In this document: positions 15,236-42,049 of the stretch, piece after piece
Position numbering within the stretch: the first letter of the stretch is position 1
Layout of the letters: each line of letters begins with the position of its first letter
The notes under the pieces: generated by a model
The model's input: the letters and a program-made list of their open reading frames with translations, nothing else
Databases searched by the model: none
Told to the model about the DNA's origin: nothing
Translations under genes and position numbers: made by a program
Origin: Minisyncoccota bacterium
GTDB taxonomy: Bacteria > Patescibacteriota > Minisyncoccia > Phycocordibacterales > Phycocordibacteraceae
NCBI GenBank assembly: GCA_039927695.1
Contig: JBDSUM010000007.1
Span: 11,700-75,699 of the forward strand
Length of the DNA: 64,000 nucleotides
Direction of reading: 5' to 3'

Positions 15236-15263
15236 TTTGTTCGAATATCGTCCCAGACGGTGC
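15236..15263 (+). repeat. Conserved intergenic repeat, copy 1
   Basis: tttgttcgaatatcgtcccagacggtgc. Confidence 0.8.
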
Positions 15264-15355
15264 TATGGTGGTGACCGCCACGCTGTTCGTCTCATATTTT
15301 AAATTCAAAAAGTGGGTATAAGAAAGCTCCACTCACACTTCTAAAAGTGATAAAT

Positions 15356-15381
15356 TAGTTCGGATATTGTCCTGGACGATC
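15356..15381 (+). repeat. Conserved intergenic repeat, copy 2 (diverged)
   Basis: tagttcggatattgtcctggacgatc; dyad kept as GTCC-TG-GAC. Confidence 0.6.
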
Positions 15382-15471
15382 TTGAATTGACTTATTCTGT
15401 ATTTAATATATAAAGTAATAGGAATTTAACCTGGTTCTTTGATAGAACCATAGCTGAGAAAGGAACCTCAA

Positions 15472-16539
15472 ATGCCCAGAATATGGACCGCTGAGGCCGT
15501 TGTCTCAGCGATTAAAACACTTCAAGATAATGGAGAGGCTCTTGATCTAACCTCAATCAACCAAGCTCACCGAAATCTACTTTGGGCTGCTACGAAATAT
15601 CATGGTACCTGGAGAAAGGCTGTTGAGGCATGTGGGATTGAATATTCATCAGTCTCACGAATTGCAATTGATCGCCAGTCCTGGGATAAGGAAAAGATAA
15701 TTGCGACACTGAAGAGTTTGTACGAACAGGGTCTTCCCTTGAATTCCAATTACGTACAGACAAAGCAACAACGTCTCTTTGGTGCTGCAACTAAATATTT
15801 CGGTGGTTGGCCTCAAACAGTGGAAGCTGCTGGTCTGAATTATGACAGGTTGCGAAAGGTAAAACTGCGCAACTGGTCCATAGAAGTAATCATTGAAGCA
15901 GTCATACATAGAGCACACTCCGAGAAATCGATAAGTGGGGCTGTTGTCTATGAAGAAGATAGAGGTCTATATCAAGCAGCTAAAAGACACTTGGGTAAAG
16001 GTGGTTGGGCTAAGGCACGAGTACTTGCAGGTTTCGCTCCAATCGATCCAGATCCCAAAAGGAAATGGACTGAAAAGAGTGTGACTGAAGAGATTCAGCG
16101 TCTTCATGCAAATGGAGTACAGCTTTACACCCAAGCCCTACAACGGAGCGAATTCAGTTATATTCTTGCAGCTGGTCGGAAAGTATTCGGAACATGGGCA
16201 TGCGCAATTGAACGCGCTAGCTTAAATTACGCTGAAATTCGAAAGGGCCGCAAGAACTTCTGGACACGTGAAGAAGTACTCCGAGGAATTAAAGGTCTTG
16301 AGGCGCAAGGTGTCCGCCTTAGTTTAAAGGAAGTAAGAGTTGGTCGTAGTGGTCTTATTGCAGCTGCGATAAAGTATTTCGGTTGCTGGAGTCAAGCGGT
16401 GGAAGCCGCAGGAATTCAGTACCGTTTACATTGCCAGACCTGGTCAACAAAAGCATGGCTGCGTCGCATGCATGTAGATGAATACAACGCGACTCTTGAA
16501 ACTTCACGAACACTTGCTAAGAAAAGGAGAATGCAATGA
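15472..16539 (+). CDS. Tandem-repeat protein (homing-endonuclease-associated-type ~50-aa repeats, no nuclease domain)
   Basis: Five repeats with core a.KYfGsW..AvEaAGi.Y (ATKYHGTWRKAVEACGIEY, ATKYFGGWPQTVEAAGLNY, AIKYFGCWSQAVEAAGIQY and two more). Confidence 0.5.
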   Translation: MPRIWTAEAVVSAIKTLQDNGEALDLTSINQAHRNLLWAATKYHGTWRKAVEACGIEYSSVSRIAIDRQSWDKEKIIATLKSLYEQGLPLNSNYVQTKQQRLFGAATKYFGGWPQTVEAAGLNYDRLRKVKLRNWSIEVIIEAVIHRAHSEKSISGAVVYEEDRGLYQAAKRHLGKGGWAKARVLAGFAPIDPDPKRKWTEKSVTEEIQRLHANGVQLYTQALQRSEFSYILAAGRKVFGTWACAIERASLNYAEIRKGRKNFWTREEVLRGIKGLEAQGVRLSLKEVRVGRSGLIAAAIKYFGCWSQAVEAAGIQYRLHCQTWSTKAWLRRMHVDEYNATLETSRTLAKKRRMQ

Positions 16540-17582
16540 GTATTTCAGCTATCACTAAGCACGGGTTCAAGTTGATTCCGGTTGCTGATATCCAAGAAAC
16601 TGTGGTGCAACTTCGCACCCATTATGCCAATGAGCCTCTTCAAGAACTGGGCAATTCTCTCGAAGATGATGGACTACTTCAGCCCATTGTCGTTGCCCCT
16701 GGTGATGAATTCAAATTCGAACTCATTATCGGCTCACGCCGTCTTCGGGCAGCACGTCATAAGGGTATGGAAGAAATTCCAGCCCTCGTGATTGAGGAGA
16801 CCAGTCCTCTGAATTATCTGCTGATTGCACTCGGCGAGAACCTTCATCGAGAAGACCTGAATCCATTTGAGGAGGCACACGCGTTCCTCCGTCTTATGAA
16901 GGATTACGGGCTTGGTGTGCAGGAAGTAGCCGTAAGAACGCATAAGGGCGAAGCGTTCGTTCGGAAGCGGATGGAATTGCTCAGTATGCCTGAGAATGTT
17001 CAGGCAATGATTGCTGAGAAGAAACTCGCCCTCCACTTCGTCCAAGCACTTGCTCGTTTGCCTACGGGTGAACAACAAGTGTATTACGCGCAGAAAGCTC
17101 TCTCTGAGGGTCTGTCAATCAGCGAGCTTCGGCAGTTGATTACAAGTGACGCGGGCGAGATGGCACCAAGAACAAAGCGGGATTTCTCCGCTGATAAAGT
17201 TCGTGTTCGTATCGATATGTTCGCTCGCTGGATGAAGCGACTCTCGGCGAACAGTGCCTTCAACAGAAGCCTCAATGCAGAAGAACGGGCTGCACTCGCG
17301 CGATCTGTCCAATCTCTGGATGGAGAGCTACGTGTTGCTCGTTCGGTGTTTGGCGAGTGGGTAGGTCGCACACCTGTGCGCTCGATCCCCAATCTGAGCA
17401 ATATCGTTGATGATCCCGATAACCATGGTGACCAGTGGTCACTGCGGCATATCGAAATGATTACCGCCAACGATCGCCCTTCTGACGATATGCTTGCAAC
17501 CAAGCTCGGCAGAAGTGTTGCTGCTATTCGTGGTATGCGATCCAAGATGCAAAGAGAAAGGAAGGATCGAAAAACCGGGTAA
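16536..17582 (+). CDS. ParB-like N-terminal domain protein
   Basis: ParB box LQPIVVAPGDEFKFELIIGSRRLRAARHKG; start overlaps the previous stop (ATGA). Confidence 0.75.
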   Translation: MSISAITKHGFKLIPVADIQETVVQLRTHYANEPLQELGNSLEDDGLLQPIVVAPGDEFKFELIIGSRRLRAARHKGMEEIPALVIEETSPLNYLLIALGENLHREDLNPFEEAHAFLRLMKDYGLGVQEVAVRTHKGEAFVRKRMELLSMPENVQAMIAEKKLALHFVQALARLPTGEQQVYYAQKALSEGLSISELRQLITSDAGEMAPRTKRDFSADKVRVRIDMFARWMKRLSANSAFNRSLNAEERAALARSVQSLDGELRVARSVFGEWVGRTPVRSIPNLSNIVDDPDNHGDQWSLRHIEMITANDRPSDDMLATKLGRSVAAIRGMRSKMQRERKDRKTG

Positions 17583-17606
17583 TACCGGAATATCGATCTC
17601 AACCTT

Positions 17607-17638
17607 AGACCCCTCCAAAAAGAGGGGTCTATTTTTTA
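17607..17638 (+). terminator. Rho-independent terminator after the ParB-like gene
   Basis: agacccctc-caaaaa-gaggggtct perfect 9-bp stem followed by attttttat. Confidence 0.8.
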
Positions 17639-17642
17639 TATA

Positions 17643-18224
17643 TTGTGTTATCCTGTTTACAGACAAGACATCAAGAGCATAGAGGTGCAAAGGGTTCTGG
17701 CCCAATACTCTATCCGCAACCTGCCTATAATCGGTAAGGTGCGAATTCCAGCCCGTAAGGGAAGATGTAACCAACCGAACAGACGGCCATCTCCCGGAGG
17801 TGGTCTTTTGTCCTTTATAAGGAGAAGTATCGTGACTGGTCATATTAAAATTATTGATCTGGAAAATGACCTTATTCCCGAGCTGGGAAATAAGAAAGAT
17901 ACCTTTCGTTCCAAGCAGGTATTTCGTTGCCCAGTATGTACATCGCTAACGAACAATATTGAAATTCGTGGCGGTTTTAAAGGTTGGCGCGCAAGCCCAT
18001 TTCCTATATGTCCGCATAGGGAACAGGAATGGCACGTCTTACTTAGAGTAAAGATTCGGCTTTCAGACCCTGCTCATCCCGTTTCTTACAGAAAGGAGCT
18101 TGAAGTTGAAATTGATTCATTAAGGTTAAACGCCAAGGATGATATATCGGGATCAGCAGATCTTTCATGTGAGAGGAAATTTCCCGCTACAAAGCTCATC
18201 ATAGAAGATAGAGGATATGACTAG
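17643..18224 (+). CDS. Hypothetical protein with Cys/His cluster (CPVC...CPH); likely shorter than the ORF
   Basis: ORF between two rho-independent terminators; possible Zn-binding residues; start uncertain (GTG near 17826 possible). Confidence 0.3.
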   Translation: MCYPVYRQDIKSIEVQRVLAQYSIRNLPIIGKVRIPARKGRCNQPNRRPSPGGGLLSFIRRSIVTGHIKIIDLENDLIPELGNKKDTFRSKQVFRCPVCTSLTNNIEIRGGFKGWRASPFPICPHREQEWHVLLRVKIRLSDPAHPVSYRKELEVEIDSLRLNAKDDISGSADLSCERKFPATKLIIEDRGYD

Positions 18225-18226
18225 TA

Positions 18227-18256
18227 CAAGGGGGTCAATTGACCCCCTTGTTTATT
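18227..18256 (+). terminator. Rho-independent terminator (perfect palindrome)
   Basis: caagggggtcaattgacccccttg followed by tttatt. Confidence 0.7.
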
Positions 18257-18270
18257 AATAGATAGCTAGA

Positions 18271-18300
18271 TTTGTTCGAATATCGTCCCAGACGGCCAGC
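18271..18300 (+). repeat. Conserved intergenic repeat, copy 3 (consensus-like)
   Basis: tttgttcgaatatcgtcccagacggccagc. Confidence 0.85.
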
Positions 18301-18303
18301 AAA

Positions 18304-19050
18304 TTGACTTATAATCTAACAAAGACAGGTGCTGCTTGGTGTCTAATAATCTTTGCTGCTTTTCTGGTATTTTCAGTAATCTTCCTAGCGTTCAGTATAG
18401 AAGATATCGAACATCTTTTTAGTATCGGCGGCTCACTCTCAATTGTAGTCGCACTCTTGGCGTATTTATATAAAAAAGAACAGGATCAAATCATCTCAAC
18501 AATTGATCAGATAACATTTTTTCGCGAAATAATAATTCCAGAGTCTGACTCAGTTAGAAAAGAAATGATTAAAAAGGATCCTCAGTTCGTAGTCTCTAGA
18601 ATAAGCCTCAAGAAACCTTCCATAGTAGAAATAAAAGAAGAGTTGCCTACAAATTTTGATAGACAATTAGAGATATTTTTTGATGCAAAAACTGCATATC
18701 CAAGTTTTATATTAGACGCAAAGATACTGGACAGACAGATTACATTACTAAACTTGCTTGAGGAATTTTCCCTCAAGGTCTTGGCTCGAGGAACAACTAG
18801 CAGTCCTGTATTAAAGGCGCTGCATAATGTGTTCGTTGAGACGGTAGAACAAAACTCTGTGGCGCTTTTGTTTGTAAGAGATTTAAAGAATACACCGCCA
18901 ACATATGAATCCATCCTTTCCCTTTATCGCGCGTGGGTAGATGGCACGACAAAAACTGTCTTGATTAAGAATCTGTATTCTGCGGGACTTATTAATAAAG
19001 AACAGAAGGATTATTTTTATACCGTTCGTCGTGAAGAAAAGGGTTTCTAG
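18304..19050 (+). CDS. Hypothetical membrane-anchored protein
   Basis: TTG start right after repeat copy 3; N-terminal TM pair. Confidence 0.4.
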   Translation: MTYNLTKTGAAWCLIIFAAFLVFSVIFLAFSIEDIEHLFSIGGSLSIVVALLAYLYKKEQDQIISTIDQITFFREIIIPESDSVRKEMIKKDPQFVVSRISLKKPSIVEIKEELPTNFDRQLEIFFDAKTAYPSFILDAKILDRQITLLNLLEEFSLKVLARGTTSSPVLKALHNVFVETVEQNSVALLFVRDLKNTPPTYESILSLYRAWVDGTTKTVLIKNLYSAGLINKEQKDYFYTVRREEKGF

Positions 19051-19074
19051 TTTTCTTAATATAAAAGATATATA

Positions 19075-19104
19075 TTTGTTCGAATACCGTCCCAGACGGC
19101 CAGC
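19075..19104 (+). repeat. Conserved intergenic repeat, copy 4
   Basis: tttgttcgaataccgtcccagacggccagc. Confidence 0.85.
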
Positions 19105-19144
19105 CAAGTTGAGATAGGTTCTGGCGTCCGAGACGCATTGATAT

Positions 19145-19193
19145 AACCAAAGGAAGAAAACCACCTCAATGAGGTGATTTTCTTCCTTTGGTT
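19145..19193 (+). terminator. Long stem-loop (possible terminator or structured RNA) after repeat copy 4
   Basis: aaccaaaggaagaaaaccacctca / tgaggtgattttcttcctttggtt; ~23-bp stem with one mismatch; 3' arm U-rich. Confidence 0.5.
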
Positions 19194-19255
19194 ACTCGAC
19201 GCTGGATCTTGTGTCGATAGTCCTGTAAGATATAGAATGTAAGTAGTTATTTTTC

Positions 19256-20941: not shown

Positions 20942-20985
20942 TTGACAAAAGGCTCAAATGCAGGGAATATGATGATTAAGACTGC

Positions 20986-22413: not shown

Positions 22414-22425
22414 TAATGAATATTC

Positions 22426-25360: not shown

Positions 25361-25606
25361 GTCTTAGTGATACCACTTTTTCCTTCAGTTCAATTTTCCC
25401 GCGTAGACAACCGAGCAGTTCTCTTTTCTCCATATCTTTTCCTTCGCGTAATAGATACTTTGCATAAGCTCTTATATCAATCTCCTGAACGTGTTTATCA
25501 GATAAGGCCATATCAGCTATGCTAGGGCTAAAAATGGGACGCCAATCCTTAATGGGGAGGCGTGTCCCATTTGTCTCATTTTGCGATAAGCGTATAGTTT
25601 GGCTAT

Positions 25607-25888: not shown

Positions 25889-25955
25889 TCCGAGACGGGT
25901 CAAATTCAGAAGATAAAATTCGCTCAGAAAGCCTTGTGGGGCTTGGCGGGAGAAA

Positions 25956-25977
25956 GTTCGAATCCCAGACAGCCAGC
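25956..25977 (+). repeat. Conserved intergenic repeat, copy 5 (internal 6-nt deletion)
   Basis: gttcgaatcccagacagccagc. Confidence 0.55.
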
Positions 25978-28787: not shown

Positions 28788-30110
28788 TTAAATTATATCC
28801 ACACGTTTGTTGTTTAGGACTATTTTACTCTTCAGACACGTCAATAAATCTCGCTTCTCAAACATCGATCCTTCGGTCAGAAGATACTTTGCATAGTTCC
28901 TGATGTCGGCTTCCTTTGCATAATAGATTTCTTCGGCTTTGCCCATGATGCCGGAGTGGAACTTCTTGTGCCGTTCAATCTCGGCCTCCAGTTTCTTCTT
29001 GATGCCTGAATGATCAAGGTCGACTTGGTCGATGATTTCTGTTAGTTGGTTGATGAGAATCTTCTCTTCGATATACCCCTCCTTGCAATTGATGTCTTTG
29101 GATCGGGTGCAGCCGTAGTAAATATACTTTGCAATTGAACCGTCCTTGAGGTTTTTAAACTTCTCCTGGGCAGTTACGCCTGAACCGCACGCTCCGCAGG
29201 AGAGGAGTCGAGTAAAGGCAAACTCCTTGTTCTTATTTGGCGCGCGGATTTGAAGATGGAGTTGTTTCTGGACGGCATCGAATAATTCCTTAGATATGAG
29301 CGGTGCATGCTTTCCCTGGAACCATCGTCCGCTTGTTTTCGGATACTCAAACGAACCGTGATAGAAGTGGTTGGCCAGAATAACGTAGACATTGCTCAAA
29401 GTGAGAGGCTTTCCGGTTCTTGTGACGAACTTAATATCCTTGAGCCACCTGTATACCTTACGGCCACTCCATCCCTCGTTCGCTACTTTCTGGAAGAGTT
29501 CCTTGATAATCGGTGCTCGGTCGGGATCTATGAACACGACACCCTTCTGATCCTTATTCTTGGAGTTGAGGTATCCAGTTGGCGCTACTGACGGCCAGAG
29601 ACCCATTTCGCATTTGGTCTTGAGGCCGCGCTTTACGTTAATACTCTTGTTGTCGTTCTCAAGCTTGGCTTGGGAGCCAAGAATCATGAGGAGAAACTTC
29701 TCGTTCGGATTGTTGGTGAAGCGTTGGCTGTAGGTACGGATTTCTATGAGTTTCTTCTGATCGAGGAGGTCTACTACTGCACCGAGGTCTCCCGCATTTC
29801 GAGCTAGGCGGTCAGGATGCCAGACGAGGATGCCGTTAAACTTTCCCTCGCGGATATCGAGAAGCAGTTTGTTGTATACCGGTCGCTGTCCGGCATCCTT
29901 TGCGGAATGTGACTCTCGATACATATCCACCACGTTCAACCCATCTCGCTGAGCTACGGCCAACATCTCGTTTAGTTGGGAATCTATGGAGAGTGCCTGC
30001 TTCTCTTCAGCTTCGCTCGATTTACGGGCGTACAGGCAATACCTGACGGGTTCCTGCTCCTGGAGGCCGGGAATAGTTATATTCGCTCCATATGCTGTTG
30101 CGGTTTCCAT
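28788..30110 (-). CDS. Large serine recombinase (paralogue of 714..2033)
   Basis: YCLYARKSSEAEEKQ catalytic motif; roughly three-quarters identical by eye to the 714..2033 protein over the catalytic domain; zinc ribbon CGACGSG...YYGCTRSKDINC. Confidence 0.9.
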   Translation of the reverse strand: METATAYGANITIPGLQEQEPVRYCLYARKSSEAEEKQALSIDSQLNEMLAVAQRDGLNVVDMYRESHSAKDAGQRPVYNKLLLDIREGKFNGILVWHPDRLARNAGDLGAVVDLLDQKKLIEIRTYSQRFTNNPNEKFLLMILGSQAKLENDNKSINVKRGLKTKCEMGLWPSVAPTGYLNSKNKDQKGVVFIDPDRAPIIKELFQKVANEGWSGRKVYRWLKDIKFVTRTGKPLTLSNVYVILANHFYHGSFEYPKTSGRWFQGKHAPLISKELFDAVQKQLHLQIRAPNKNKEFAFTRLLSCGACGSGVTAQEKFKNLKDGSIAKYIYYGCTRSKDINCKEGYIEEKILINQLTEIIDQVDLDHSGIKKKLEAEIERHKKFHSGIMGKAEEIYYAKEADIRNYAKYLLTEGSMFEKRDLLTCLKSKIVLNNKRVDII

Positions 30111-32583: not shown

Positions 32584-32588
32584 CATCT

Positions 32589-34295: not shown

Positions 34296-34598
34296 GCCGA
34301 TAACAATATCGGCTGTTTTCGTATTAACTATAGGAATTACTTTACGCAGTAAAAATCACAGTTAAAAAGGGAGAAAACGGTGACCCGAAACCGGCTTCTT
34401 CACCGTATTTTTCCCGTATTAACGGTCAGGAGTAGGACGACCTAGAGCCGTTAGTCTCGCAGCAAAATATTCGCTAGAATACCCTTACAACAGCTCATGT
34501 CAGTCGGTACCAGACTAAGCATCGCAGCCAACTCGTGCTAGGTTATCGCGCTCGAGACGCGTCGGTAAATTTCGTCTAAAAGTGATAGCATGTAGATA

Positions 34599-35321
34599 AT
34601 GAATGTTGATATTGAACAAATCCGAACATTGTTGAGAGTCAATGGATTAGATGAACAAAGTTCAGATACGCAAATATCTAGTATTTTGCAACAAGCAGGA
34701 TATGCCCCCGATCAGCAAGAAGCAGCTCTGCGTCTATTAAAGCAAGGTCAAGCACCTTCGTTATTATCCAGTGCTGAAGCGCGTCCTAATCCACCCCATT
34801 CAATAAGTATCCCTGCTCTTCAAAAGCAGGACCGGGTCGTGAGTTGGCTTAGAGTTTACTATATTCTACTTGTTGTATACCTCATTGCATTTACCATTGT
34901 TACGTTAGGGTTCGGTCCACTTCTGATACAAGGGTATTTTCTCGAATCACTCATTGTAATTACTTTCCTATTCGTAATCAGTTTATGTTTACCAACAGTT
35001 CGTAGACACAAGAAGCAAACCTTCTTCTTCCTTCTAACATTCATCTTTGCCGCTTCACCATTATTTCTCATACTAAAGCCTGCGATTGGACTATCCAATA
35101 TCCCTCTTTTTATTAAGGTCAGCGGCATGGAGTCGAAAGCTAGCAAAGGGGATCTATTAATGTGGCAAAAACGGTATAAAGAAGATGAAGCCACAGGATA
35201 TTTTGAAACCCATCCAGGAAGTAAATTTGATGAGACGTTAAGAATTAAAGAATCCAGAGACAAATATTGCGCTGACTCTTTTAGCAAAGGCGATTCTGAC
35301 TACAAAAGCTTGTGTCAGTAA
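34599..35321 (+). CDS. Polytopic membrane protein
   Basis: 3-4 TM helices in the central region. Confidence 0.45.
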   Translation: MNVDIEQIRTLLRVNGLDEQSSDTQISSILQQAGYAPDQQEAALRLLKQGQAPSLLSSAEARPNPPHSISIPALQKQDRVVSWLRVYYILLVVYLIAFTIVTLGFGPLLIQGYFLESLIVITFLFVISLCLPTVRRHKKQTFFFLLTFIFAASPLFLILKPAIGLSNIPLFIKVSGMESKASKGDLLMWQKRYKEDEATGYFETHPGSKFDETLRIKESRDKYCADSFSKGDSDYKSLCQ

Positions 35322-35362
35322 GCTGAAACATCACTCTTAAAAAGTTTTCTTTATTAATAGCC

Positions 35363-35389
35363 GTTTGAATACCGTCTCAGACGGCCAGC
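35363..35389 (+). repeat. Conserved intergenic repeat, copy 6
   Basis: gtttgaataccgtctcagacggccagc; dyad CGTC-TCA-GACG. Confidence 0.8.
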
Positions 35390-35414
35390 CAGATTGTTTG
35401 ATAGAATAATCGAC

Positions 35415-35888: not shown

Positions 35889-35890
35889 AA

Positions 35891-35920
35891 GTTGTTGAAA
35901 TATCGTCTGAGACGGTCAAC
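35891..35920 (+). repeat. Conserved intergenic repeat, copy 7
   Basis: gttgttgaaatatcgtctgagacggtcaac; dyad CGTC-TGA-GACG. Confidence 0.75.
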
Positions 35921-36138
35921 TCATATATCCTTAGAATATATGACATGAAAATCTAGAAGCATATTCTTTGGGATTGTTGCGGCGCTTACCATACTGGGTA
36001 CGGCATGGTCGACGAAAGGTACTGAAAACCAGAACGCATGGCTCTGGGTATTTAGTGCGTGGCTAGTTTTCACGGCGGCTTTCGAGGCATACTTCAATTG
36101 GAGTAATAGGAGTAAGAAAGTAGAGAGATAAGTAAACA

Positions 36139-36166
36139 GGTTTGGATATCGTCCCAGACTTCCAGC
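36139..36166 (+). repeat. Conserved intergenic repeat, copy 8
   Basis: ggtttggatatcgtcccagacttccagc. Confidence 0.75.
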
Positions 36167-36191
36167 TCGTATTTGTGTCATAATTCTGCTA

Positions 36192-36446
36192 ATGAAGATT
36201 CTTGTTTCAATAGTTCTTCTGCTCTTGGGGATGTCCATGCTGGTATGGAGTAAGAGATTTACTTTCTTTAGTTACTGGTCGAGGCACCTAGGTGAGTTCG
36301 GGGTATTCGGTATGAAAGATTCTTTTCCAGACCTTCCCGGTTGGGAAAGTAAACGGATCCGAAAGACTTATGCAGTCTTAAACCTAGCCCTAGGTATAGG
36401 ATTTATCATTTCTGCAGTACTCATATATCTTAGCGATTTCAGATAA
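36192..36446 (+). CDS. Small 2-TM membrane protein
   Basis: 84 aa with two hydrophobic helices; preceded by repeat copy 8. Confidence 0.4.
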   Translation: MKILVSIVLLLLGMSMLVWSKRFTFFSYWSRHLGEFGVFGMKDSFPDLPGWESKRIRKTYAVLNLALGIGFIISAVLIYLSDFR

Positions 36447-36450
36447 TAGT

Positions 36451-36478
36451 GGTTCCAATGTCGTACCAGGCTTCCAGC
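36451..36478 (+). repeat. Conserved intergenic repeat, copy 9
   Basis: ggttccaatgtcgtaccaggcttccagc. Confidence 0.6.
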
Positions 36479-36498
36479 TCGTTTGATATACTTTCCAT

Positions 36499-36954: not shown

Positions 36955-36955
36955 T

Positions 36956-36990
36956 TAGTTCGGCTCCCACATCGTACCAGAATCCCAACC
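36956..36990 (+). repeat. Conserved intergenic repeat, copy 10 (5-nt insertion)
   Basis: tagttcggctcccacatcgtaccagaatcccaacc. Confidence 0.5.
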
Positions 36991-37058
36991 ATTGACATAT
37001 GTATATATTAATACTATAAATCCTTCAGACGCATTTCGCGTTCATTGGGAGATTTCTC

Positions 37059-37472
37059 ATGGGTAAGTACCGCATCCCAGCTGCTCTTTTCGGCTGGTTC
37101 ATCATCATCGTGAACCTTTCCATTGCATTCGTGCCCGGTCTCAGCAATTTTCTGGTGCATGTCACCATCGAGACGTCACTCGTCTGGCGACTGCTCTTTT
37201 CGGCCTATGTCATTGCGGGGCTCGTTGCTCTCACGGGCGTAATGCTTCCGTTCTCGGATGCGAAGCCGCTTCAGAGCTTTGCAACTGCGAGCTCTATCGG
37301 CTGGCCTCTCGCCTGGATATGCGTCGCTCCGTATGACGGCACTGCCACCTGGAGCCTTACCGCTGTCATGTTCTTCGCGGCGTGGTCATTTACCGCTGCG
37401 GTCTGCATGGCGCGCAATTTGCCACCATTCAAGTTTCGGTTTGAATGGCCGGTGCGGCTCGGTCTCGCTTGA
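37059..37472 (+). CDS. Membrane protein (4 TM)
   Basis: Hydrophobic throughout; preceded by repeat copy 10. Confidence 0.45.
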   Translation: MGKYRIPAALFGWFIIIVNLSIAFVPGLSNFLVHVTIETSLVWRLLFSAYVIAGLVALTGVMLPFSDAKPLQSFATASSIGWPLAWICVAPYDGTATWSLTAVMFFAAWSFTAAVCMARNLPPFKFRFEWPVRLGLA

Positions 37473-37532
37473 GTCGACACCTTACAAGCCCGATTTCGCT
37501 TTTGCGGGGTCGGGCCTCATTTTGTATGCAAA

Positions 37533-37562
37533 ATTGTTCGAATACTGTCTCAGGCCCTCGGC
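37533..37562 (+). repeat. Conserved intergenic repeat, copy 11
   Basis: attgttcgaatactgtctcaggccctcggc. Confidence 0.7.
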
Positions 37563-37628
37563 AAAATTATTTAAGCGTAAATCGCCACATCAATTCATGT
37601 TGATTTACTGCATGCTACGATATAAACA

Positions 37629-38405
37629 ATGGAAGAAGTGATACATAAGAACTTGTTCACAAAAGTAACTCCACTTTCTAAATATCTCGCGATGATACTT
37701 TTTATTGCGATGCCTTTTATTGGCGGATGGGTTGGGTATACATATGCTCCTCGGAAAATAGTTGAAATCGAAAAAGTAGTTTATCAAAAGGATACAAATG
37801 ATTCCTTTGTATTGCCGGAAGAAGCCAAAAACTGGGGACTTTGTGAGCCGACTTCCGCTGTTACTCAAGTTAGTAGAAGTTGGAGTAATCTTGGAAAGAT
37901 TGGATTAGGATTCCAAAAGATTGATGACCAATGGAACAGGCTATTTGTTCCTTTCTATGATTATAAAGTAAAGGGGTATTGCATGAATTATCCCAATACG
38001 TGGAAGATCGCTCCTGCTGGCGTAGAGAATCTAGCGATTTCGTTTAACCGAGATACAAATTCTACAGCCACACCCGAATTTTATTTTGAAGTGGTTAGTT
38101 CAGATTTGCCCTTGGAGAGTTCTGATAAGTTGGTTTATCGATATGAAGAGTCCTCCTCACCACTTGTAGGAATTAACGAGGTAATTGTATCAAAAGAAAT
38201 CAAACACATCGGAGATAAAGATGCACTTGTATTAATAACAAATGAAGGTAATACTGCCTACCTTCGTATATTCGTAAAAGACGAAAGTAAGTTCTACATG
38301 TTAGAGAAATCTTTTCCTTCACCCGAATTCTACACTTCTATCTATGCAGATTTCTTGGCAACCGCATTCGAGATGATCTCTTCCATCCGTCCATTGGGAA
38401 AATAA
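37629..38405 (+). CDS. Hypothetical secreted/membrane-anchored protein
   Basis: N-terminal TM/signal-like segment; no family recognised; preceded by repeat copy 11. Confidence 0.45.
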   Translation: MEEVIHKNLFTKVTPLSKYLAMILFIAMPFIGGWVGYTYAPRKIVEIEKVVYQKDTNDSFVLPEEAKNWGLCEPTSAVTQVSRSWSNLGKIGLGFQKIDDQWNRLFVPFYDYKVKGYCMNYPNTWKIAPAGVENLAISFNRDTNSTATPEFYFEVVSSDLPLESSDKLVYRYEESSSPLVGINEVIVSKEIKHIGDKDALVLITNEGNTAYLRIFVKDESKFYMLEKSFPSPEFYTSIYADFLATAFEMISSIRPLGK

Positions 38406-38418
38406 CACTTTAGCAAGT

Positions 38419-38449
38419 ATTGTTTGAATATCGTCCCAGACTCCCAGTC
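38419..38449 (+). repeat. Conserved intergenic repeat, copy 12
   Basis: attgtttgaatatcgtcccagactcccagtc. Confidence 0.8.
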
Positions 38450-38492
38450 AATATCTTATAGCGCAAGGTGATGTAATCAGTATACTTATCAA

Positions 38493-38963
38493 ATGATTAA
38501 GATCAGTTTTGTACGAATCTCACCGACGCATCATCGTTTCTCATATGAACGAGAGAACGGATCAGGCGAGTCTATTGAATTGGAAACGAAAACGTATTTG
38601 CTGCATGATTTTGTGCACTTCTGTGTGGAGAGCGAAGCTCAACTGACTGGAGGTTTTTATGGACAGCTTGCGCAAGGAAGTACATTTGCTGATTTGGTCG
38701 GCACGCCCAACTCCGAACTTTCTGGTATGGGGCTCGATGTAGAAAGGGTGGTAGGGGCACTAACGGGTGTAGTTCAGGGAAGAATTACACCAGATGCGCT
38801 TTTGGATGGCTTGAAGAATCTGTATCAGGCATATGGCAAACCCATACCTGGGTGGGTGAATCAAGAATATATCGCTCAGGTCTCTGAGCGATATCGAAAG
38901 CTAAATGGGCAATGGAATTCTCTCCGATTTGGTGAGCGACTGGATTTAGTTTTCGGGAAATAA
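38493..38963 (+). CDS. Hypothetical protein
   Basis: 156-aa ORF preceded by repeat copy 12 and followed by copy 13. Confidence 0.45.
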   Translation: MIKISFVRISPTHHRFSYERENGSGESIELETKTYLLHDFVHFCVESEAQLTGGFYGQLAQGSTFADLVGTPNSELSGMGLDVERVVGALTGVVQGRITPDALLDGLKNLYQAYGKPIPGWVNQEYIAQVSERYRKLNGQWNSLRFGERLDLVFGK

Positions 38964-38993
38964 AGTTTCCACGTCGTACGAAATACCCAGCTC
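38964..38993 (+). repeat. Conserved intergenic repeat, copy 13 (degenerate)
   Basis: agtttccacgtcgtacgaaatacccagctc. Confidence 0.4.
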
Positions 38994-38998
38994 AACTT

Positions 38999-39853
38999 GT
39001 GTGCCATAATGTGTATATGAAATTCCTCCATGATCTGCGAGCAGCGGTTTATTCTCCTAATTTCCTAGCCCACTTTAAGAATCGAACCTTTAATCAGGCG
39101 GTACTTTTTATTTTCGTACTTGTTCTTATACAGACTTTGATCACAGAAGTGATAGTTCTTACTAGAGTTGTTAATCCATTTATAACGTTCACTTCCGGTA
39201 ATTTCATCAAGCAATACTATCCTGAAGATCTCGATGTCACTGTTACTGATGGTTTAGTTGCTACAAATCAAGCCAACCCATATCTTATTGCAAATCCTGA
39301 TGTAAGAGCTGGTACAGCCACGGGTACTGTTTTCTCTAATATCGTAGTAATTGATACCCAAGCGACAGATACGATTTCTGCACTGCACAGGTACAACACC
39401 TACGTATTAGTGACGCATGATTCTGTAGCATCAGAAAATGGTCCTGATGGAGAGATACGTGTGATACCTCTCAAGAATATAAAGAATCTCCATCTCACTC
39501 AACCTCTGGTACAAGAATATTTTACAAAAGCGATTCCATACATATATGGAGTTGGAATATTGGGAATAATTCTTTTGCCACTATTAGTTGCTGCTTTCTC
39601 ACTTGGTTACTATTTATTCATTCTTTTGGGTCTTGCCTTAATAACTTGGTTCATAGCTAGACTTCGAAAGGTAGATGCAGGGTATAAAAAATCATACATA
39701 CTTTCTGGATATCTTCTTGCGCTACCTATTCTCACTGATTTGGTTCTGGATCTTATCATTCCAGGAAGTCGATTCGTACTCATAGCCGTAATATTCGTAC
39801 TCATAGCCATTCTAAATGTTAAGCAGGAGAAAGATATAATCCAGGCTACATAA
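38999..39853 (+). CDS. Polytopic membrane protein
   Basis: Several TM helices in the C-terminal half. Confidence 0.45.
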   Translation: MCHNVYMKFLHDLRAAVYSPNFLAHFKNRTFNQAVLFIFVLVLIQTLITEVIVLTRVVNPFITFTSGNFIKQYYPEDLDVTVTDGLVATNQANPYLIANPDVRAGTATGTVFSNIVVIDTQATDTISALHRYNTYVLVTHDSVASENGPDGEIRVIPLKNIKNLHLTQPLVQEYFTKAIPYIYGVGILGIILLPLLVAAFSLGYYLFILLGLALITWFIARLRKVDAGYKKSYILSGYLLALPILTDLVLDLIIPGSRFVLIAVIFVLIAILNVKQEKDIIQAT

Positions 39854-39862
39854 GTTCAGATT

Positions 39863-40849
39863 ATGAAAATTGCTAGTCAGGATTTGGAACAGAAGATACT
39901 AACGACCCTCGCGGAGAAGGGTTTCTCTAATGAGGATGCGCAAAGTATCACCGACTACCTTATGTGGGCAGAAAAGTCTGGCATTAAGACACAGGGAATT
40001 ATAAAGATGACTGGCACCGAGCCACTTCAAAATATTCAGCCTAAACATGAAATCAGAATAGAGCGAGATACAAAACTCTCGCAGCTCATAAATGGCGGTG
40101 CGCACCCCGCTCCGTTGGTCAGCCAAAAAGCAACTGATGTAGTTATAGAAAAAGCCAAAGAACATGGTTTCGGTATCGTTGGTGTACGAAACACTTTCTC
40201 TAGCAACGGAGCGCAAGGGTTCTATGCCGAGAAGATTGCTGAACAAGATTTAATAGGAATCGTTTGCAGTCGTTCTCCCGCCGCAACGACTGGTTTCGAC
40301 AGTATTGATCCACTATGGGGTACGAATCCTATTGGTTTTGGATTCCCAACGGAGGGTGAGCCGCTTGTATTTGATATGGCCACATCAGCCATGACATTCT
40401 ATGGCCTTATTCTTGCAAAGGCTCGTGGTGAAAAGATCCCAGACAATATGGCAATCGATAGTGAGGGTAATCCTACGAATGATCCTGCATCTGCGATGGA
40501 TGGTGCGATTCTTCCATTCGATAGGGGATACAAAGGTGCAGGATTAGGTATGGTTATAGAAATGCTTGCAGGTCCTCTAACTAATTCTGCCTGGATCGAT
40601 AACAAGGCCTTCACTGAAGAATGGGGCTCATTATTCATTGCCATTGATCCGAATCTACTAGTAGATACCGTTGTCTTTAAGAAAAATGCCACAGATCTTG
40701 TATCTAAGATTAAATCTTCAAGAAGGAAACAGGGTACAAGTGCAATTCGCCTCCCAGGTGAGCGTGCTGCCGAAAGTAGAAAAGAGGTTGAATTATCCGG
40801 AATGGTTGAAGTTGAAGAGGCTATCATGAAGGAATTAGGATATCTATAA
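39863..40849 (+). CDS. Malate/L-lactate dehydrogenase family 2 (Ldh_2) oxidoreductase
   Basis: Ldh_2-like N-terminus (EQKILTTLAEKGFSNEDAQSITDYLMWAEKSGIKTQGI) and length 328 aa. Confidence 0.65.
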   Translation: MKIASQDLEQKILTTLAEKGFSNEDAQSITDYLMWAEKSGIKTQGIIKMTGTEPLQNIQPKHEIRIERDTKLSQLINGGAHPAPLVSQKATDVVIEKAKEHGFGIVGVRNTFSSNGAQGFYAEKIAEQDLIGIVCSRSPAATTGFDSIDPLWGTNPIGFGFPTEGEPLVFDMATSAMTFYGLILAKARGEKIPDNMAIDSEGNPTNDPASAMDGAILPFDRGYKGAGLGMVIEMLAGPLTNSAWIDNKAFTEEWGSLFIAIDPNLLVDTVVFKKNATDLVSKIKSSRRKQGTSAIRLPGERAAESRKEVELSGMVEVEEAIMKELGYL

Positions 40850-40951
40850 AATATGAAGCTATATAGATTTACCCTGCTAAAGATCAAATAACTCTTTTAG
40901 AGGCGATTCGCTACATTCATATTGAATGTTTCAAGTTAGCCACCTTTTTCT

Positions 40952-41389
40952 TTGAGGCTGGGATGTTTCTGTTATATTTTAAGCATGCTAAAAACAAGGA
41001 CTCGTATATGGTGGTCGACAGCTGTGCTACTAGCGTTTATTTCTGTGGCAGGTCTATGCGCTCATGCGCTCGGCTGGTACCAAGAGTATTGGTTTGCCGA
41101 TGTTATTCTCCATACTCTCTCTGGGGGAATGTTTGGCCTTTTCTGGCTCGGACTTACGTATAAGGAAGAGTATAAGTCGAAGTTAATCTTTATACTTACC
41201 ATAACAATGGCTGGAGTATTCGGAAGCTATTTTTGGGAACTATGGGAGTTTGGTGGTGCGTACATTTTGCCGGGAATAGCGATAGCGTATCTACCGGATC
41301 TGGCTGACACCCTCAGTGACATTGCTTGCGGTATGTGTGGCGCTCTGATAGTTGGTGTTATGTATTTCCTACAGACCAGCAAACGTTAA
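40952..41389 (+). CDS. Membrane protein (4 TM)
   Basis: Hydrophobic profile only. Confidence 0.4.
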   Translation: MRLGCFCYILSMLKTRTRIWWSTAVLLAFISVAGLCAHALGWYQEYWFADVILHTLSGGMFGLFWLGLTYKEEYKSKLIFILTITMAGVFGSYFWELWEFGGAYILPGIAIAYLPDLADTLSDIACGMCGALIVGVMYFLQTSKR

Positions 41390-41414
41390 ACGAAGATACT
41401 AAATTTGTTCTAAT

Positions 41415-41999
41415 ATGACCGAGAAGGAAGTTTCAGAAAAGCCTATTCGTCCCTTTGCGACGGCACAGGTATGGCGCGCCTGGCTTGAAAAGAATCAAGC
41501 GAAGCCAGAGGGTATGTGGCTGCGTATCTATAAGAAAGACTCGGCGAAAAAGACCGTCACTCATCTTGAAGCGCTCGACGAAGCCCTTTGCTACGGATGG
41601 ATAGACGGGCAGAGGAAAGCGTATGACACTGAATCGTTCTTGCAGAAGTTCACGCCTCGTCGATCAAAGAGTCTGTGGTCGAAGCGTAATCGTGAGAATG
41701 TCATGCGTCTTATCAAAGAAAGACGCATGACCGCTGCTGGCCTAGCTGAAATCGACGCTGCTAAAAAGGATGGCCGATGGGAGCAGGCATATGACGCTGG
41801 CAGTACTATGCAAGTGCCGGCAGATTTCCTCGCTGCACTGAAGAAAGATAAGAAGGCATACGAGTTTTTTAAGACTCTGAATAAGGCTAATACCTATGCT
41901 ATTGCCTGGCGTCTACAAACTGCCAGGAAGCCAGAGACTCGAATGAAACGTATGGAGGCACTGCTAGCTCTCATGAAAGAAGGAAGGAAACTGCATTAA
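41415..41999 (+). CDS. YdeI/OmpD-associated (OmdA) family protein
   Basis: WRAWLEKN...GWIDGQRKAYDTESFLQKFTPRRSKSLWSKRNRENVMRLI pattern. Confidence 0.55.
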   Translation: MTEKEVSEKPIRPFATAQVWRAWLEKNQAKPEGMWLRIYKKDSAKKTVTHLEALDEALCYGWIDGQRKAYDTESFLQKFTPRRSKSLWSKRNRENVMRLIKERRMTAAGLAEIDAAKKDGRWEQAYDAGSTMQVPADFLAALKKDKKAYEFFKTLNKANTYAIAWRLQTARKPETRMKRMEALLALMKEGRKLH

Positions 42000-42022
42000 T
42001 TATTCGGTCGTTGCTTGCTCAG

Positions 42023-42049
42023 ATTTGTTCGGATATTGTCTTAGTCAAC
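42023..42049 (+). repeat. Conserved intergenic repeat, copy 14 (last copy; array ends here)
   Basis: atttgttcggatattgtcttagtcaac. Confidence 0.6.

Follow-up and report, generated by a model that had tools for sequence, protein, structure and literature searches.

A 27-nt repeat family anchored at tRNA-Gln probably represents attP-type half-sites of large serine recombinase elements in Patescibacteria

The window, which is the entire 64,000-nt stretch of DNA analysed here, contains 42 kb of an island that extends at least about 7 kb (7.4 kb) past its left edge, and harbors three recombinase genes and one recombinase remnant. LSR1 (714..2033, - strand) is the large serine recombinase (LSR) belonging to a second type of element, which runs from about 0.7 to 11 kb and also carries a LOOT RNA, a conserved 496-aa gene, an N6/N4 methylase and CBASS. 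The far end of this element is a conserved noncoding module of about 100 nt (10896..10996, + strand), as indicated by synteny with the compared stretch L103, where this element type also ends in the module. The module itself ends in a tRNA-Gln-like 3' end, recurs in L038, L040, L069 and L085, and shows homology to L020 and L008 that stops exactly at ...CCAGC; it had no Rfam match, and its consensus structure was weak. With its 3' end, the LSR2 gene (10950..12449, - strand) spans the left junction of the next element. It encodes Pfam Resolvase, Recombinase and Zn_ribbon_recom domains, and the protein has more than 2300 homologues at E<=1e-30, a distant PDB match in the SPbeta integrase and an NCBI entry as [quoted passage not shown]. 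Adjoining it on the upstream side is a gene for a G2P-like Rep protein of the rolling-circle type (12446..13228, - strand; Pfam PF23343), of a kind found paired with LSR2-family genes. LSR3 (28788..30110, - strand) shares 61% identity with LSR1 and 33% with LSR2, and a tblastn match (57% over 56 aa) identified the C-terminal remnant of an LSR1/3-like recombinase gene at 25365..25532 on the - strand.

The genes of the island are punctuated by short sites, all on the + strand, which we registered to the 27-nt core GTTCGAATATCGTCCCAGACGGCCAGC and for which mismatches were counted against that core. Sites of this form are referred to as P-type, and sites with the spacing of a tRNA as B-type. The leftmost is a B-type site, GGTTCGAACTCGAGACGGCCAGC (10973-10995), which terminates the noncoding module and is the left-hand junction of the LSR2 element. 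Rightward from the LSR2-Rep element, the first P-type site (15239..15265), 27 nt long, is canonical to position 22 and divergent after it, and is presumed to be the right end of that element. A degenerate P-type site with nine mismatches, followed by ATTGACTT, lies at 15358..15384 (nhmmer E=1.6e-6), a canonical site without mismatches at 18274..18300 closes a unit of an HNH-repeat protein, a ParB-like protein and a small ORF, and a site with one mismatch at 19078..19104 closes a one-gene unit. At 25955..25977, a B-type site corresponds to a tRNA-Gln 3' fragment with true tRNA spacing; downstream of it lies a segment with a helicase, LSR3, a methylase, GmrSD and DUF2130, and the sequence with which this segment begins (TTTTAG..AGTATCGAAGGACC) comes after a B-type site in L004 as well. 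At 34477..34556, where the public assembly breaks, lie two sites that are hybrids or remnants, one with ...TAGTCTCGCAGC abutting AAAATATT and the other with ...GTCGGTACCAGAC-TAAGCATCGCAGC abutting CAACTCGTGCTAGG.

The sites then become regularly spaced, with eight in 3.6 kb. P-type sites close the unit of a 240-aa ORF (35363..35389, three mismatches), a DUF1697 unit (35894..35920, six mismatches), a 246-nt unit without a + strand gene (36140..36166, four mismatches) and an 84-aa unit (36452..36478, six mismatches, intermediate to a second subfamily), whereas degenerate sites of that second subfamily close a Glyoxalase/VOC unit (36963..36989) and a 156-aa unit (38965..38991). Between these two lie a P-type site with eight mismatches (37536..37562), which has a terminator-like hairpin shortly upstream (37488-37515), and one with four mismatches that closes a 258-aa unit (38422..38448). 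The last P-type site (42027..42053), degenerate with 10 mismatches (nhmmer E=1.6e-6), closes a DUF1189-Ldh_2-DUF2238-OmdA unit and is followed by an NrtR gene, the 55% identical orthologue of which lies only about 6 kb from tRNA-Gln in L104.

A sequence-only reading of the window had listed 14 copies of the repeat, and all 14 proved to be members of the family, which a repeat search also recovered. The 30-mer occurs exactly at 18271 and with one mismatch at 19075, compared to none in shuffled sequences; a profile made from the copies gave 10 strong + strand matches (E 4e-11 to 2e-6) and weaker ones at 36445 and 25956, and allowing up to six mismatches to the 27-nt core gave 14 matches versus none in shuffles. 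The copies at 36956 (register 36963) and 38964 belong to the second subfamily, GTTCCCACGTCGTACCAGACGGTCAGC, which is clear in other genomes, whereas the copy at 25956 represents another form, AGTTCGAATCCCAGACAGCCAGC, which is shorter and has the spacing of a true tRNA. Every copy is on the + strand and intergenic, as that reading had stated. The gap to the end of the previous + strand gene is 1-66 nt for most of them and 251-619 nt at 15239, 15358 and 36140; the next + strand gene begins 20-271 nt downstream. The proposed confinement of the family to 15.2-42 kb does not stand, as at least two sites exist beyond the listed 14, namely the tRNA-spaced copy at 10973-10995 and the hybrid remnants at about 34.5 kb.

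The repeat family is not special to this genome. An exact-pattern scan located the 27-nt core in 87 public stretches, 29 from genomes and 58 from metagenomes, and returned zero matches in viral contigs. All 28 genome records with a lineage in the title are Patescibacteria, while the metagenome contigs of the scan carry no organism names. A tRNA-Gln gene is in view in 29 stretches, where without exception it lies upstream of the copies and shares their strand, and in each of them the array begins at the tRNA-Gln 3' end, with the core genes FtsX, PyrG, MetK and DUF1761 upstream of the tRNA. At the head of each array stands an intact tRNA, after the last base of which the insert starts. Copies are co-oriented within each stretch, and contigs of 0.2-0.7 Mb contain sites in no more than one or two short stretches. 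Across the compared stretches the arrays are thus evidently anchored at tRNA-Gln, an anchor that had escaped the sequence-only reading together with the origin of the element as a modified copy of the tRNA-Gln end; the window genome's own tRNA-Gln is absent from the window and from the linked assembly contig.

The relationship to the tRNA is apparent from the anatomy of the site. In a logo of 136 distinct copies, each of positions 1-27 carries 0.9-1.9 bits with a sharp drop at position 28, and an A is found six bases upstream of position 1 in 121 of the copies. The last 15 nt of the element are in register with tRNA-Gln positions 60-74, and the T-loop-like motif GTTCGAAT lies 5 bp further out in the element than in the tRNA, a shift that is clear in the alignments. 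Displacement by 5 bp of the motif for the zinc-ribbon domain distinguishes attP from attB of large serine recombinases (Rutherford et al. 2013, PMC3783163), and the outward shift of GTTCGAAT matches this published half-site signature, so the element reads as attP-type. A conserved right half-site was not found: the logo loses its information from position 28 onward, and the sequences that follow the tRNA are heterogeneous. The tRNA end and the sites can differ, as in L006, where the tRNA ends ...TCCTAGTCCCGCAGC and the sites end ...CCCAGACGGCCAGC, and L047 contains a 15-nt fragment with tRNA spacing. The element is not a hairpin. A short dyad with preserved arms and a variable centre had been described; however, the centre CCA is nearly invariant (126 of the 136 distinct copies) and the outer dyad position varies without compensation, which removes the argument that the arms are kept while the centre is free.

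Homologous single-gene units in different genomes share sequence only from after the left site through the right site, placing the unit boundaries, as far as such comparisons tell, at P sites. Such units recur with different neighbours and, in the single case of units X and Y, in an order that differs between two genomes. Shared units are 45-88% identical. Unit starts of the same kinds follow the tRNA 3' end and P sites, and L047 and L049, which are 98% identical over their shared region, show recent change, as they differ in the DNA inserted at the tRNA end. Spacing can be regular elsewhere as well, with three sites in 1.2 kb in L076. The cargo is very diverse; the 759 ORFs from the 87 stretches and the window form few clusters and include VOC, DUF2200, SDR, serine hydrolase and P-type ATPase proteins. 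Neither a tyrosine recombinase nor any serine recombinase other than large ones was found among these ORFs. The 87 stretches contain only recombinase remnants (L032, L090 and L093), and in most genomes the unit adjoining the tRNA lacks a recombinase.

Elements consisting of Rep and a recombinase of the LSR2 family were found to abut a tRNA or tRNA-like end in eight independent contexts. What the recombinase gene overlaps with its 3' end is an intact tRNA-Gln (L095/096, L097, L102, L104 and L106-108), the tRNA-Gln 3' end at a contig edge (L105), tRNA-Trp (L100/101) or the tRNA-like module (the window and L103). Immediately upstream of the LSR2-family gene, a Rep gene of the PF23343 family was called in L095-L103 and in L105-L107 but not in L104; L108, where the corresponding stretch is unannotated, is left out of this count. 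The far end is visible in five elements (L095/096, L097, L105, L100/101 and L103) and is formed in each by one P-type site, at a distance of 6-7.4 kb from the junction, an arrangement with the recombinase end at the tRNA and the P site opposite that appears consistently in these five independent elements. The 3' end of the P site also co-varies with the target: the tRNA-Trp element has TTTCGAAT-CTCGT-CCCACAGGGCCCGC compared to a tRNA end of ...TCCTAGTAGGCCCGC, and in L103 both element ends finish in GCCCGC. One P site in L024 leads into the beginning of an LSR2-type element, a junction that is forbidden by the simple rule.

We consider it probable that the 27-nt element is the attP-type half-site of LSR elements that target the tRNA-Gln 3' end in the ultra-small Patescibacteria. 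The suggestion of a cassette-boundary recombination site, possibly for the co-resident large serine recombinases, is supported by comparative evidence, namely the recurring units, the occurrence of only large serine recombinases near the arrays and the five complete LSR2-family elements. The recombinase would bind and cut P sites, reading a proximal motif, TCCnAGnCnnnCAGC, equivalent to tRNA positions 60-74, and the distal T-loop motif GTTCGAAT with the A six bases upstream of it. The two motifs are contiguous in the tRNA, which would serve as attB, and are separated in the element by a conserved 5-bp spacer, nTCGT, by which the LSR would tell attP from attB. Incoming DNA would be placed directly after ...CAGC of the tRNA, with an exact crossover point presumably within the last 4-7 shared bases, and the P half-site would land at the opposite end of the insert. 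Successive insertions, whether at the tRNA or at the tRNA-like ends of other inserts, would move older units outward and would yield a co-oriented array in which a P site terminates every unit. Units without a recombinase gene may have been moved in trans, or left behind when a Rep-LSR core excised via a nearer P site. The island is most likely a long, variable, gene-cassette-like structure built by insertions at tRNA-Gln.

Several observations stand against the attP-type reading. Classical LSR sites have two recognisable half-sites, compared to one here. A tRNA with an earlier insert is formally an attL, a substrate that classical LSRs accept only together with a directionality factor. The L024 junction and the absence of the window genome's tRNA-Gln from the DNA in view count against the reading as well. 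Few recombinase genes accompany the arrays, the P site at 15239 provides no clean attR, and neither a free circular form nor an episomal attP was found.

One possibility refines the attP-type reading and does not exclude it. In an integron-like platform, the tRNA-Gln 3' end would act as attI and the P site as attC, and units consisting of a gene and its terminal P site would be mobile in trans by LSR. The recurrence of P-bounded single-gene units with different neighbours and order, the very regular spacing in L076 and the window, the diversity of the cargo and the usual lack of a recombinase in the tRNA-adjoining unit are consistent with it. However, unit starts show no conserved partner half-site, so a circular unit would hold only half a classical attP; the identity of shared units falls short of near-identity and does not demonstrate recent transfer, and the same pattern would result if units rode as Rep-LSR cargo and then stayed behind. 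We therefore regard this refinement as tentative. It is unlikely that the sites are displaced tRNA-Gln 3' ends left by integrases, typically tyrosine recombinases, whose crossover falls within the tRNA and which bring a replacement end with them. Islands with scattered partial tRNAs, such as the tycheposon islands, are well known, and the true tRNA-spaced fragments at 25955, at 10973 and in L047 fit this view, but the abundant form has a 5-bp insertion found in no tRNA, the sites in L006 differ from the resident tRNA end, the same sequence extends across distant Patescibacteria lineages, the head tRNA is intact with the insert after its last base, and a tyrosine recombinase is missing from the 759 ORFs.

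We give little credence to the sites serving mainly as homology anchors at which RecA would exchange, delete and shuffle units once DNA has been taken up, in place of site-specific recombination. Direct identical 27-mers can support deletion and exchange, and some sites are hybrid or truncated (15239, about 34.5 kb and L004 4828), which suggests irregular events. Nevertheless, 27 bp is marginal for RecA, and such a role explains neither the tRNA mimicry with its 5-bp shift, nor the co-variation with the tRNA-Trp target, nor the constant position of the recombinase gene at the tRNA junction. The alternative offered by the sequence-only reading, a promoter or operator that binds a regulator or acts as an upstream promoter element of the downstream gene, is highly improbable. 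Although a subset of copies has TTGACT and a -10 box, or an extended -10 box, at a fixed distance, TTGAC occurs at +3 in only 9 of 136 copies, and a promoter scan of 34.5-42.1 kb gave fewer matches than shuffles. The site is inherited with the upstream gene and not with the downstream one, the left sites of c43 belong to different subfamilies while the downstream gene is the same, the tRNA 3' end takes the equivalent position, and each contig has only one or two short stretches of sites.

Among known systems, the sites of serine integrases (A118/LI, Bxb1, phiC31, SPbeta) share with those described here the Resolvase, Recombinase and zinc-ribbon domains, the recombinase at one junction, a host-type half-site on one flank with an element-type half-site on the other, and common proximal and distal motifs with the distal one displaced by 5 bp in the element-type site (model of PMC3783163). 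Here, however, the target is a tRNA gene 3' end that seems to be reused regardless of the DNA on its right, a single conserved half-site is visible, and the recombinases are at most 27% identical to phage integrases. The tycheposon islands of Prochlorococcus grow at the tRNA-proximal end by repeated integration, mostly with tyrosine recombinases as integrases and in a minority with large serine recombinases (bioRxiv 10.1101/2020.12.28.424599). They similarly combine scattered partial tRNAs, degenerate elements, and defence and niche cargo; however, their partial tRNAs are plain, whereas here a modified tRNA end with a 5-bp spacer is dominant and the small units are very regular. In the SCC islands of staphylococci, the CcrAB large serine recombinases act at the 3' end of rlmH/orfX, with serial insertion at the end of one conserved gene, tandem units separated by short direct repeats, and recombinase-less units presumably moved in trans, as here, although host phylum, target gene, repeat and recombinase family differ and our units are often single genes. 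The ssrA-specific islands of Dehalococcoides likewise lie in tandem, separated by direct repeats, and use a serine recombinase that targets a small RNA gene at its 3' end; those repeats are copies of the ssrA 3' end itself, and phylum and target differ. An integron was rejected, as there is no tyrosine recombinase, no attC-type folded palindrome with paired inverted repeats and no integrase beside the insertion point, and the units are not uniformly promoterless, some having their own promoter-like and terminator-like signals. Nevertheless, the arrays resemble those built by IntI at attI and attC in being co-oriented series of mostly single, diverse accessory genes, each unit ending in a recombination site and recurring in different contexts, with a fixed insertion point at the array head.

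The repeated intergenic sequence of the window forms a single family. A search with the 30-mer form of the element found an exact copy at 18271 and one with a single mismatch at 19075, compared with 0 matches in shuffled sequence. A profile built from the copies recovered ten strong plus-strand copies and two weaker ones, and independent repeat finding returned the same family. In the register of the 27-nt core GTTCGAATATCGTCCCAGACGGCCAGC, sites lie on the plus strand at 15239, 15358, 18274, 19078, 35363, 35894, 36140, 36452, 36963, 37536, 38422, 38965 and 42027, and a shorter form, a fragment of the tRNA-spaced (B-type) version, lies at 25955, also on the plus strand. With six or fewer mismatches allowed, the window held 14 matches versus none in shuffles. 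All window sites are intergenic and on the plus strand, and profile search, repeat finding and shuffles agree with the sequence-only reading, which had grouped its copies into one such family. Its placement of every copy 0–60 nt after a stop codon holds for most sites (1–66 nt from the upstream plus-strand gene end) but not for 15239, 15358 and 36140, where the distance is 251–619 nt. Likewise, its listed copies all belong to the family, but a site at 10973–10995 and hybrid remnants near 34.5 kb had been overlooked. The two weakest listed copies, at 36956 and 38964, represent a second subfamily, GTTCCCACGTCGTACCAGACGGTCAGC, which is clear in other genomes.

A sequence logo of 136 distinct copies carries 0.9–1.9 bits at each of positions 1–27 and collapses at position 28, and an A is found six bases 5′ of position 1 in 121 of the 136. 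Conservation covers an asymmetric block of 27 nt, or 33 nt with the upstream A, and does not extend into the flanks. Its final 15 nt (TCCCAGACGGCCAGC) are in register with tRNA-Gln positions 60–74, which comprise the 3′ strands of the T and acceptor stems together with G73 and C74 (e.g. TCCAAGTCTGGCAGC). The T-loop–like GTTCGAAT of the element is displaced outward by 5 nt relative to the tRNA, with the conserved spacer nTCGT in between, and when the T-loop motifs are aligned the conserved upstream A corresponds to A47 of the tRNA. This spacer-bearing form is referred to as the P-type site. The sequence-only reading had described a dyad, CGTC-N3-GACG, with preserved arms and a variable centre. 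The larger sample contradicts this, as the CCA centre is kept in 126 of 136 copies, outer position 21 varies in 37 of 136 with its partner unchanged, and the inner dyad pair is broken in the second subfamily. The absence of compensatory change and the invariant centre indicate that the dyad is a by-product of sequence conservation and rule out an RNA hairpin or symmetric operator.

Some matches depart from this pattern. Three sites (15239–15265 and ~34530–34556 in the window, and 4828–4892 in L004; L-numbers denote the other sequence stretches compared) match the P-type only to position 20–22 (...CCAGACGG) and then continue into unrelated sequence, which is suggestive of a second breakpoint lying ~5 nt within the site. 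A minus-strand match at 4005–4031, with 14 nt identical to the element core (GAATATCGTCCCAG), lies within the conserved 496-aa gene of the LSR1-type element and is probably due to chance.

The element has a narrow distribution. Scanning one genome per species with GTTYGAATAYCGTCYCAGAC gave 36 matches in 29 stretches, and a pattern of this information content was estimated to give about nine chance matches across all bacteria. Every record with a lineage in its title (28 of 28) came from Patescibacteria (Paceibacterota/Parcubacteria, Saccharibacteria, Adlerbacteria). Metagenome contigs contributed 58 further stretches, and viral contigs scanned with the element pattern gave no match. Contigs of 0.2–0.74 Mb contained matches in just one or two short stretches each and genomes of Patescibacteria of this kind are ~1 Mb, which argues that each genome has the element at no more than one or two loci. 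Copies are co-oriented within every stretch and often spaced by 0.3–2 kb; the one or two stretches per contig and the uniform orientation rule out a REP/BIME or other genome-wide dispersed repeat.

In 29 of the 87 stretches, the copies are preceded on their own strand by a tRNA-Gln gene (CTG or TTG anticodon); across all 87, such a gene was never seen downstream or on the opposite strand. The few other tRNAs are part of the core context. Upstream of tRNA-Gln are genes for FtsX, CTP synthase (PyrG), SAM synthetase (MetK) with its riboswitch, and DUF1761; a recombinase gene adjoining the tRNA was considered and rejected on the basis of these neighbors. A 331-aa protein without a Pfam match is encoded near tRNA-Gln in some lineages only. 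The upstream tRNA-Gln and the core genes beyond it indicate that arrays begin at the tRNA-Gln 3′ end beside core genes, and an island starting at the tRNA 3′ end between conserved core flanks was found in the 29 stretches and in L095, L097, L102 and L104–L108. The window itself contains no tRNA or tmRNA, and tRNA-Gln is also absent from the 7.4 kb to its left.

Sequences 3′ of P sites fall into recurrent kinds, beginning AATTGACTTTT..., TCG..., CAACTYGTGCTAGG... or AAAGTCGAAAATCAGCG..., and these kinds are also found directly after the final base of intact tRNA-Gln genes, so the tRNA end and the P site are equivalent junctions. Units of one gene recur as homologs in different genomes, bounded by P sites and set among unrelated neighbors; examples are four pairs of stretches, named by ORF cluster (c9, L049/L055; c98, L075/L079; c43, L006/L022; c33, L040/L090). 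In these pairs, similarity sets in just past the left site, continues across the gene and the right site, and ends directly beyond; the c43 pair has left sites of different subfamilies and the same downstream gene. These limits and the c43 mismatch define the unit as a start, one or more genes and a P site. Unit order also varies, with units X-Y in L004 versus Y-Z-X in contig JALHML010000012, which shows that deletion alone is insufficient. The sequence-only reading had looked to presence/absence or order polymorphism between strains as a sign of cassette mobility; across the genomes compared, neighbors differ in the four unit pairs and order differs in the X-Y arrangement. L047 and L049 are 98% identical over a shared 695 nt, but one has additional DNA with a P site inserted between tRNA and first unit.

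Several further observations concern unit boundaries. At the tRNA-Gln end of L047 (2923–3131, compared with L049 4621–4694), a 15-nt copy of the tRNA end, then ~190 nt of unknown sequence and a P-type site come before the first unit, which points to a further, putative element type crossing over inside the T arm. A 1.3-kb difference between two related contigs, L044 (622/624) and L062 (2950–4248), was set aside, being an intein- or intron-like insertion inside a coding region and unrelated to the sites. A decay gradient away from the tRNA was also rejected, as it is visible in the window and absent from other arrays. One recurrent unit start, CA(A/G)(C/G)T(T/C)G..CTAGGTTAT(C/T)GCG..CGAGACGCGTCG, is found at 19105–19145 and 34557–34600 in the window, at 406–450 in L028, and in L040, L071 and L082. 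It also occurs, reverse-complemented, at the start of assembly contig L033; the public assembly breaks at this CTAGGTTAT/CGAGACGCGTCG repeat.

Recombinase genes are rare in the arrays. The 759 ORFs of the window and the 87 stretches included no recurrent recombinase and no dominant gene cluster, cluster representatives being ordinary accessory enzymes. In the same ORFs, phmmer with an XerD sequence found no tyrosine recombinase, and the only serine recombinases were a remnant in L032 and the three large ones of the window, all on the minus strand (LSR1, 714–2033; LSR2, 10950–12449; LSR3, 28788–30110). Most arrays have no recombinase gene. LSR1 and LSR2 contain Resolvase, Recombinase and zinc-ribbon domains and LSR3 contains Resolvase and Recombinase; no conserved junction was recognized past the stop codons of LSR1 and LSR3, where their attachment sites were sought. 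LSR2 has more than 2300 homologs. A G2P-type Rep gene precedes the LSR2-family gene in every context with an annotated upstream stretch except L104, where none was called.

The 3′ end of the LSR2-family gene overlaps the junction in eight contexts. It lies over an intact tRNA-Gln in L095/096, L097, L102, L104 and L106–108, over the tRNA-Gln 3′ end at a contig edge in L105, over tRNA-Trp in L100/101, and over the tRNA-like end of a conserved 100-nt module in the window and L103. Where the far end of the element is in view, it consists of a single P-type site 6–7.4 kb away. The target ends and far-end sites are, respectively, ...TCCTAGTTCCGCAGC and GTTCGGATCTCGTCCCAGACTCCCAGC for tRNA-Gln in L095, ...TCCAGGTCCCGCAGT and GTTCCAACATCGTTCCAGACGTCCAGC for tRNA-Gln in L097, ...TCCTAGTCCCGCAGC and GTTCGGATATCGTCCCAGACGGCCAGC for tRNA-Gln in L105, ...TCCTAGTAGGCCCGC and TTTCGAATCTCGTCCCACAGGGCCCGC for tRNA-Trp in L100, and ...GAGACAGCCCGC and GTTCGGATTTCGTCCCACACTGCCCGC for the module in L103. 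Across these five pairs, the terminal bases of the far-end site track the target and the T-loop motif and 5-bp spacer stay constant. Partner sites share 4–7 terminal bases (CAGC, GCCCGC, GGCCCGC), which could hold the crossover, and no conserved right half-site was seen in the logo of 136 copies or in the sequences past tRNA and P sites. The tRNA-Trp element of L100/L101 encodes an LSR2 relative (61% identical) at the tRNA (L100 11452–11523), with its matching far-end site at 4694–4720 and no small-unit array behind it. A search for a free circular form with a joined attP gave no viral-contig match, and every LSR2-family contig examined was the integrated form.

The window can be read as a composite of such parts. 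An LSR1-type element at ~0.7–11 kb, syntenic with L103, carries LSR1, a LOOT RNA, the conserved 496-aa gene, an N6/N4 methylase and CBASS, and ends in the module at 10896–10996. The LSR2-Rep element runs from 10997 to ~15.2 kb, the next P site rightward being 15239. Two units with canonical closing sites (15.4–18.3 and 18.3–19.1 kb) are followed by a segment with C5 methylase, SNF2 and NOV_C (19.1–25.9 kb) that contains a recombinase remnant (25365–25532) and is closed by the B-type fragment at 25955. A segment with helicase, LSR3, methylase, GmrSD and DUF2130 (26.0–34.5 kb) precedes nine units of mostly single small genes (34.5–42.05 kb), each closed by a progressively degenerate site, and NrtR and core genes lie beyond 42.05 kb. 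In L104, an NrtR ortholog (55% identical) is just ~6 kb from tRNA-Gln, consistent with shared flanks enclosing an island that varies greatly in size. To the left of the window, the public assembly contig extends for 7.4 kb and opens with a unit start. A 2023-aa SpvB/RHS-repeat protein of the same island (L033 12376–18447) is encoded there on the plus strand (window orientation), from 5.0 kb to 11 bp before the window begins.

The LOOT RNA (RF03000), the only match in an Rfam scan of the window, is at 2483–2597 on the plus strand, and further copies are in L095 (7733–7849), L097 (7863–7981), L103 (19454–19573) and L026 (6082–6204). It adjoins LSR1 in the window and L103, lies inside the Rep-LSR elements of L095 and L097, and may be an element-encoded regulatory RNA; we know of no function assigned to it. 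The ~100-nt noncoding module at 10896–10996 also occurs in L008, L020, L038, L040, L069, L085 and L103. Its 5′ part begins with GC(A/T)CGAGACGCGTCG, the CGAGACGCGTCG core being shared with the recurrent unit start, and a pseudo-tRNA-Gln 3′ end closes it. LSR1-type elements have the module as their far end, and in two genomes it is where LSR2-type elements land; as a structured RNA it gave no Rfam match and weak consensus folding. The LSR1-type element carries as cargo the CBASS pair at 8913–10422 (a CD-NTase C-terminal-domain protein with a Cap15 effector), and L103 has a different SMODS-type system in the same place. Four tandem diverged ~140-nt repeats at 53432–55359, spaced by 285–870 nt, most likely encode repeated domains of a large surface protein.

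Three other explanations of the sites were weighed. The promoter or operator alternative of the sequence-only reading is unlikely, as TTGAC occurs at +3 in just 9 of 136 copies, a promoter scan of 34.5–42.1 kb gave fewer matches than shuffles, and the P site travels with the upstream gene. A terminator-like hairpin was found within 80 nt upstream of 21 of 135 copies, compared with 6 in control windows. Promoter or terminator coupling is seen in a minority of copies only. Plain partial-tRNA scars do exist, at 25955 and in L047, but leave the dominant spacer-bearing form unexplained. Homologous recombination between repeats may have added deletions and shuffling, but mimicry of the tRNA, co-variation of paired sites and the position of the recombinase gene are not accounted for in this way.

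Site-specific recombination by large serine recombinases probably accounts for these features. From the LI integrase structure, attP was proposed to differ from attB by a 5-bp outward shift of the distal (zinc-ribbon) motif (PMC3783163). The tRNA-Gln and tRNA-Trp ends and their far-end sites share a proximal motif, with the distal motif 5 bp further out in the element-type site. The elements thus show the arrangement that large serine integrases produce, one junction holding a putative host-type half-site and the opposite one a putative element-type half-site. A joined attP would read as a P site followed by the element start, e.g. GTTCGAATATCGTCCCAGACGGCCAGCAAAGTTTCAAAATCAGC. The tRNA-Gln 3′ end seems to be re-used whatever adjoins it on the right. 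In L024, a P site is joined to the start of an LSR2-type element, a junction forbidden under a simple attP × attB rule. The small units might be moved in trans as cassettes, or might arrive as cargo and remain when the Rep-LSR core excises via a nearer P site; both mechanisms fit, and we do not choose between them.

Patescibacteria have tiny genomes with few recognized mobile elements, and to our knowledge their acquisition of accessory and defense genes is poorly understood. Our results point to one conserved hotspot, the tRNA-Gln 3′ end, and to one conserved 27-bp site that organizes much of the variable gene content at that hotspot, including in the window an island of more than 42 kb with restriction-modification, CBASS, GmrSD and toxin genes. 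A phylum-wide, integron-like gene-capture platform is a tentative proposal that we regard as somewhat less probable than its negation. Under it, the tRNA-Gln 3′ end would be the fixed insertion point, a 27-bp tRNA-mimicking half-site would close each cassette, and the recombinases of small rolling-circle (Rep-LSR) elements, needing just the left half-site of each partner, would move recombinase-less, often single-gene cassettes in trans. If the small units do move themselves, the cassette-array principle would have been invented a second time, independently. The site pairs offer a naturally occurring attB/attP set that differs cleanly by a 5-bp spacer and includes a tRNA-Trp variant, making the half-site model of serine integrases directly testable with new enzymes, and may be a source of new integrases targeting a near-universal tRNA sequence.

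The literature searched contained no description of this system, although such absence is not proof that it is undescribed. The arrays resemble integrons in their co-oriented look and in units of one ORF plus a terminal site that recur across contexts, a resemblance in architecture only. Unlike attC sites, which are imperfect palindromes of 57–141 nt (R''-L''/L'-R') that fold as single strands, the site is an asymmetric 27 nt. Membership among integrons was rejected, with core genes rather than an integrase by the insertion site and no attC structure; the doubt already voiced on this point was well placed, as the called window genes of ~0–48 kb include no tyrosine recombinase (no Phage_integrase match) and the 27-nt block is not an attC. 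Large serine integrase elements share the recombinase gene at the element end and the 5-bp half-site shift, with the sites here putative; their sites are expected to have two pseudo-symmetric half-sites around a central dinucleotide identical in both partners, and one conserved half is visible here. Known serine-integrase elements and tRNA-proximal additive islands work in a similar way, and SCC composite islands have a similar array appearance. As far as the compared genomes indicate, what is unusual is a putative tRNA-mimicking half-site conserved superphylum-wide, together with a very regular cassette-like array.
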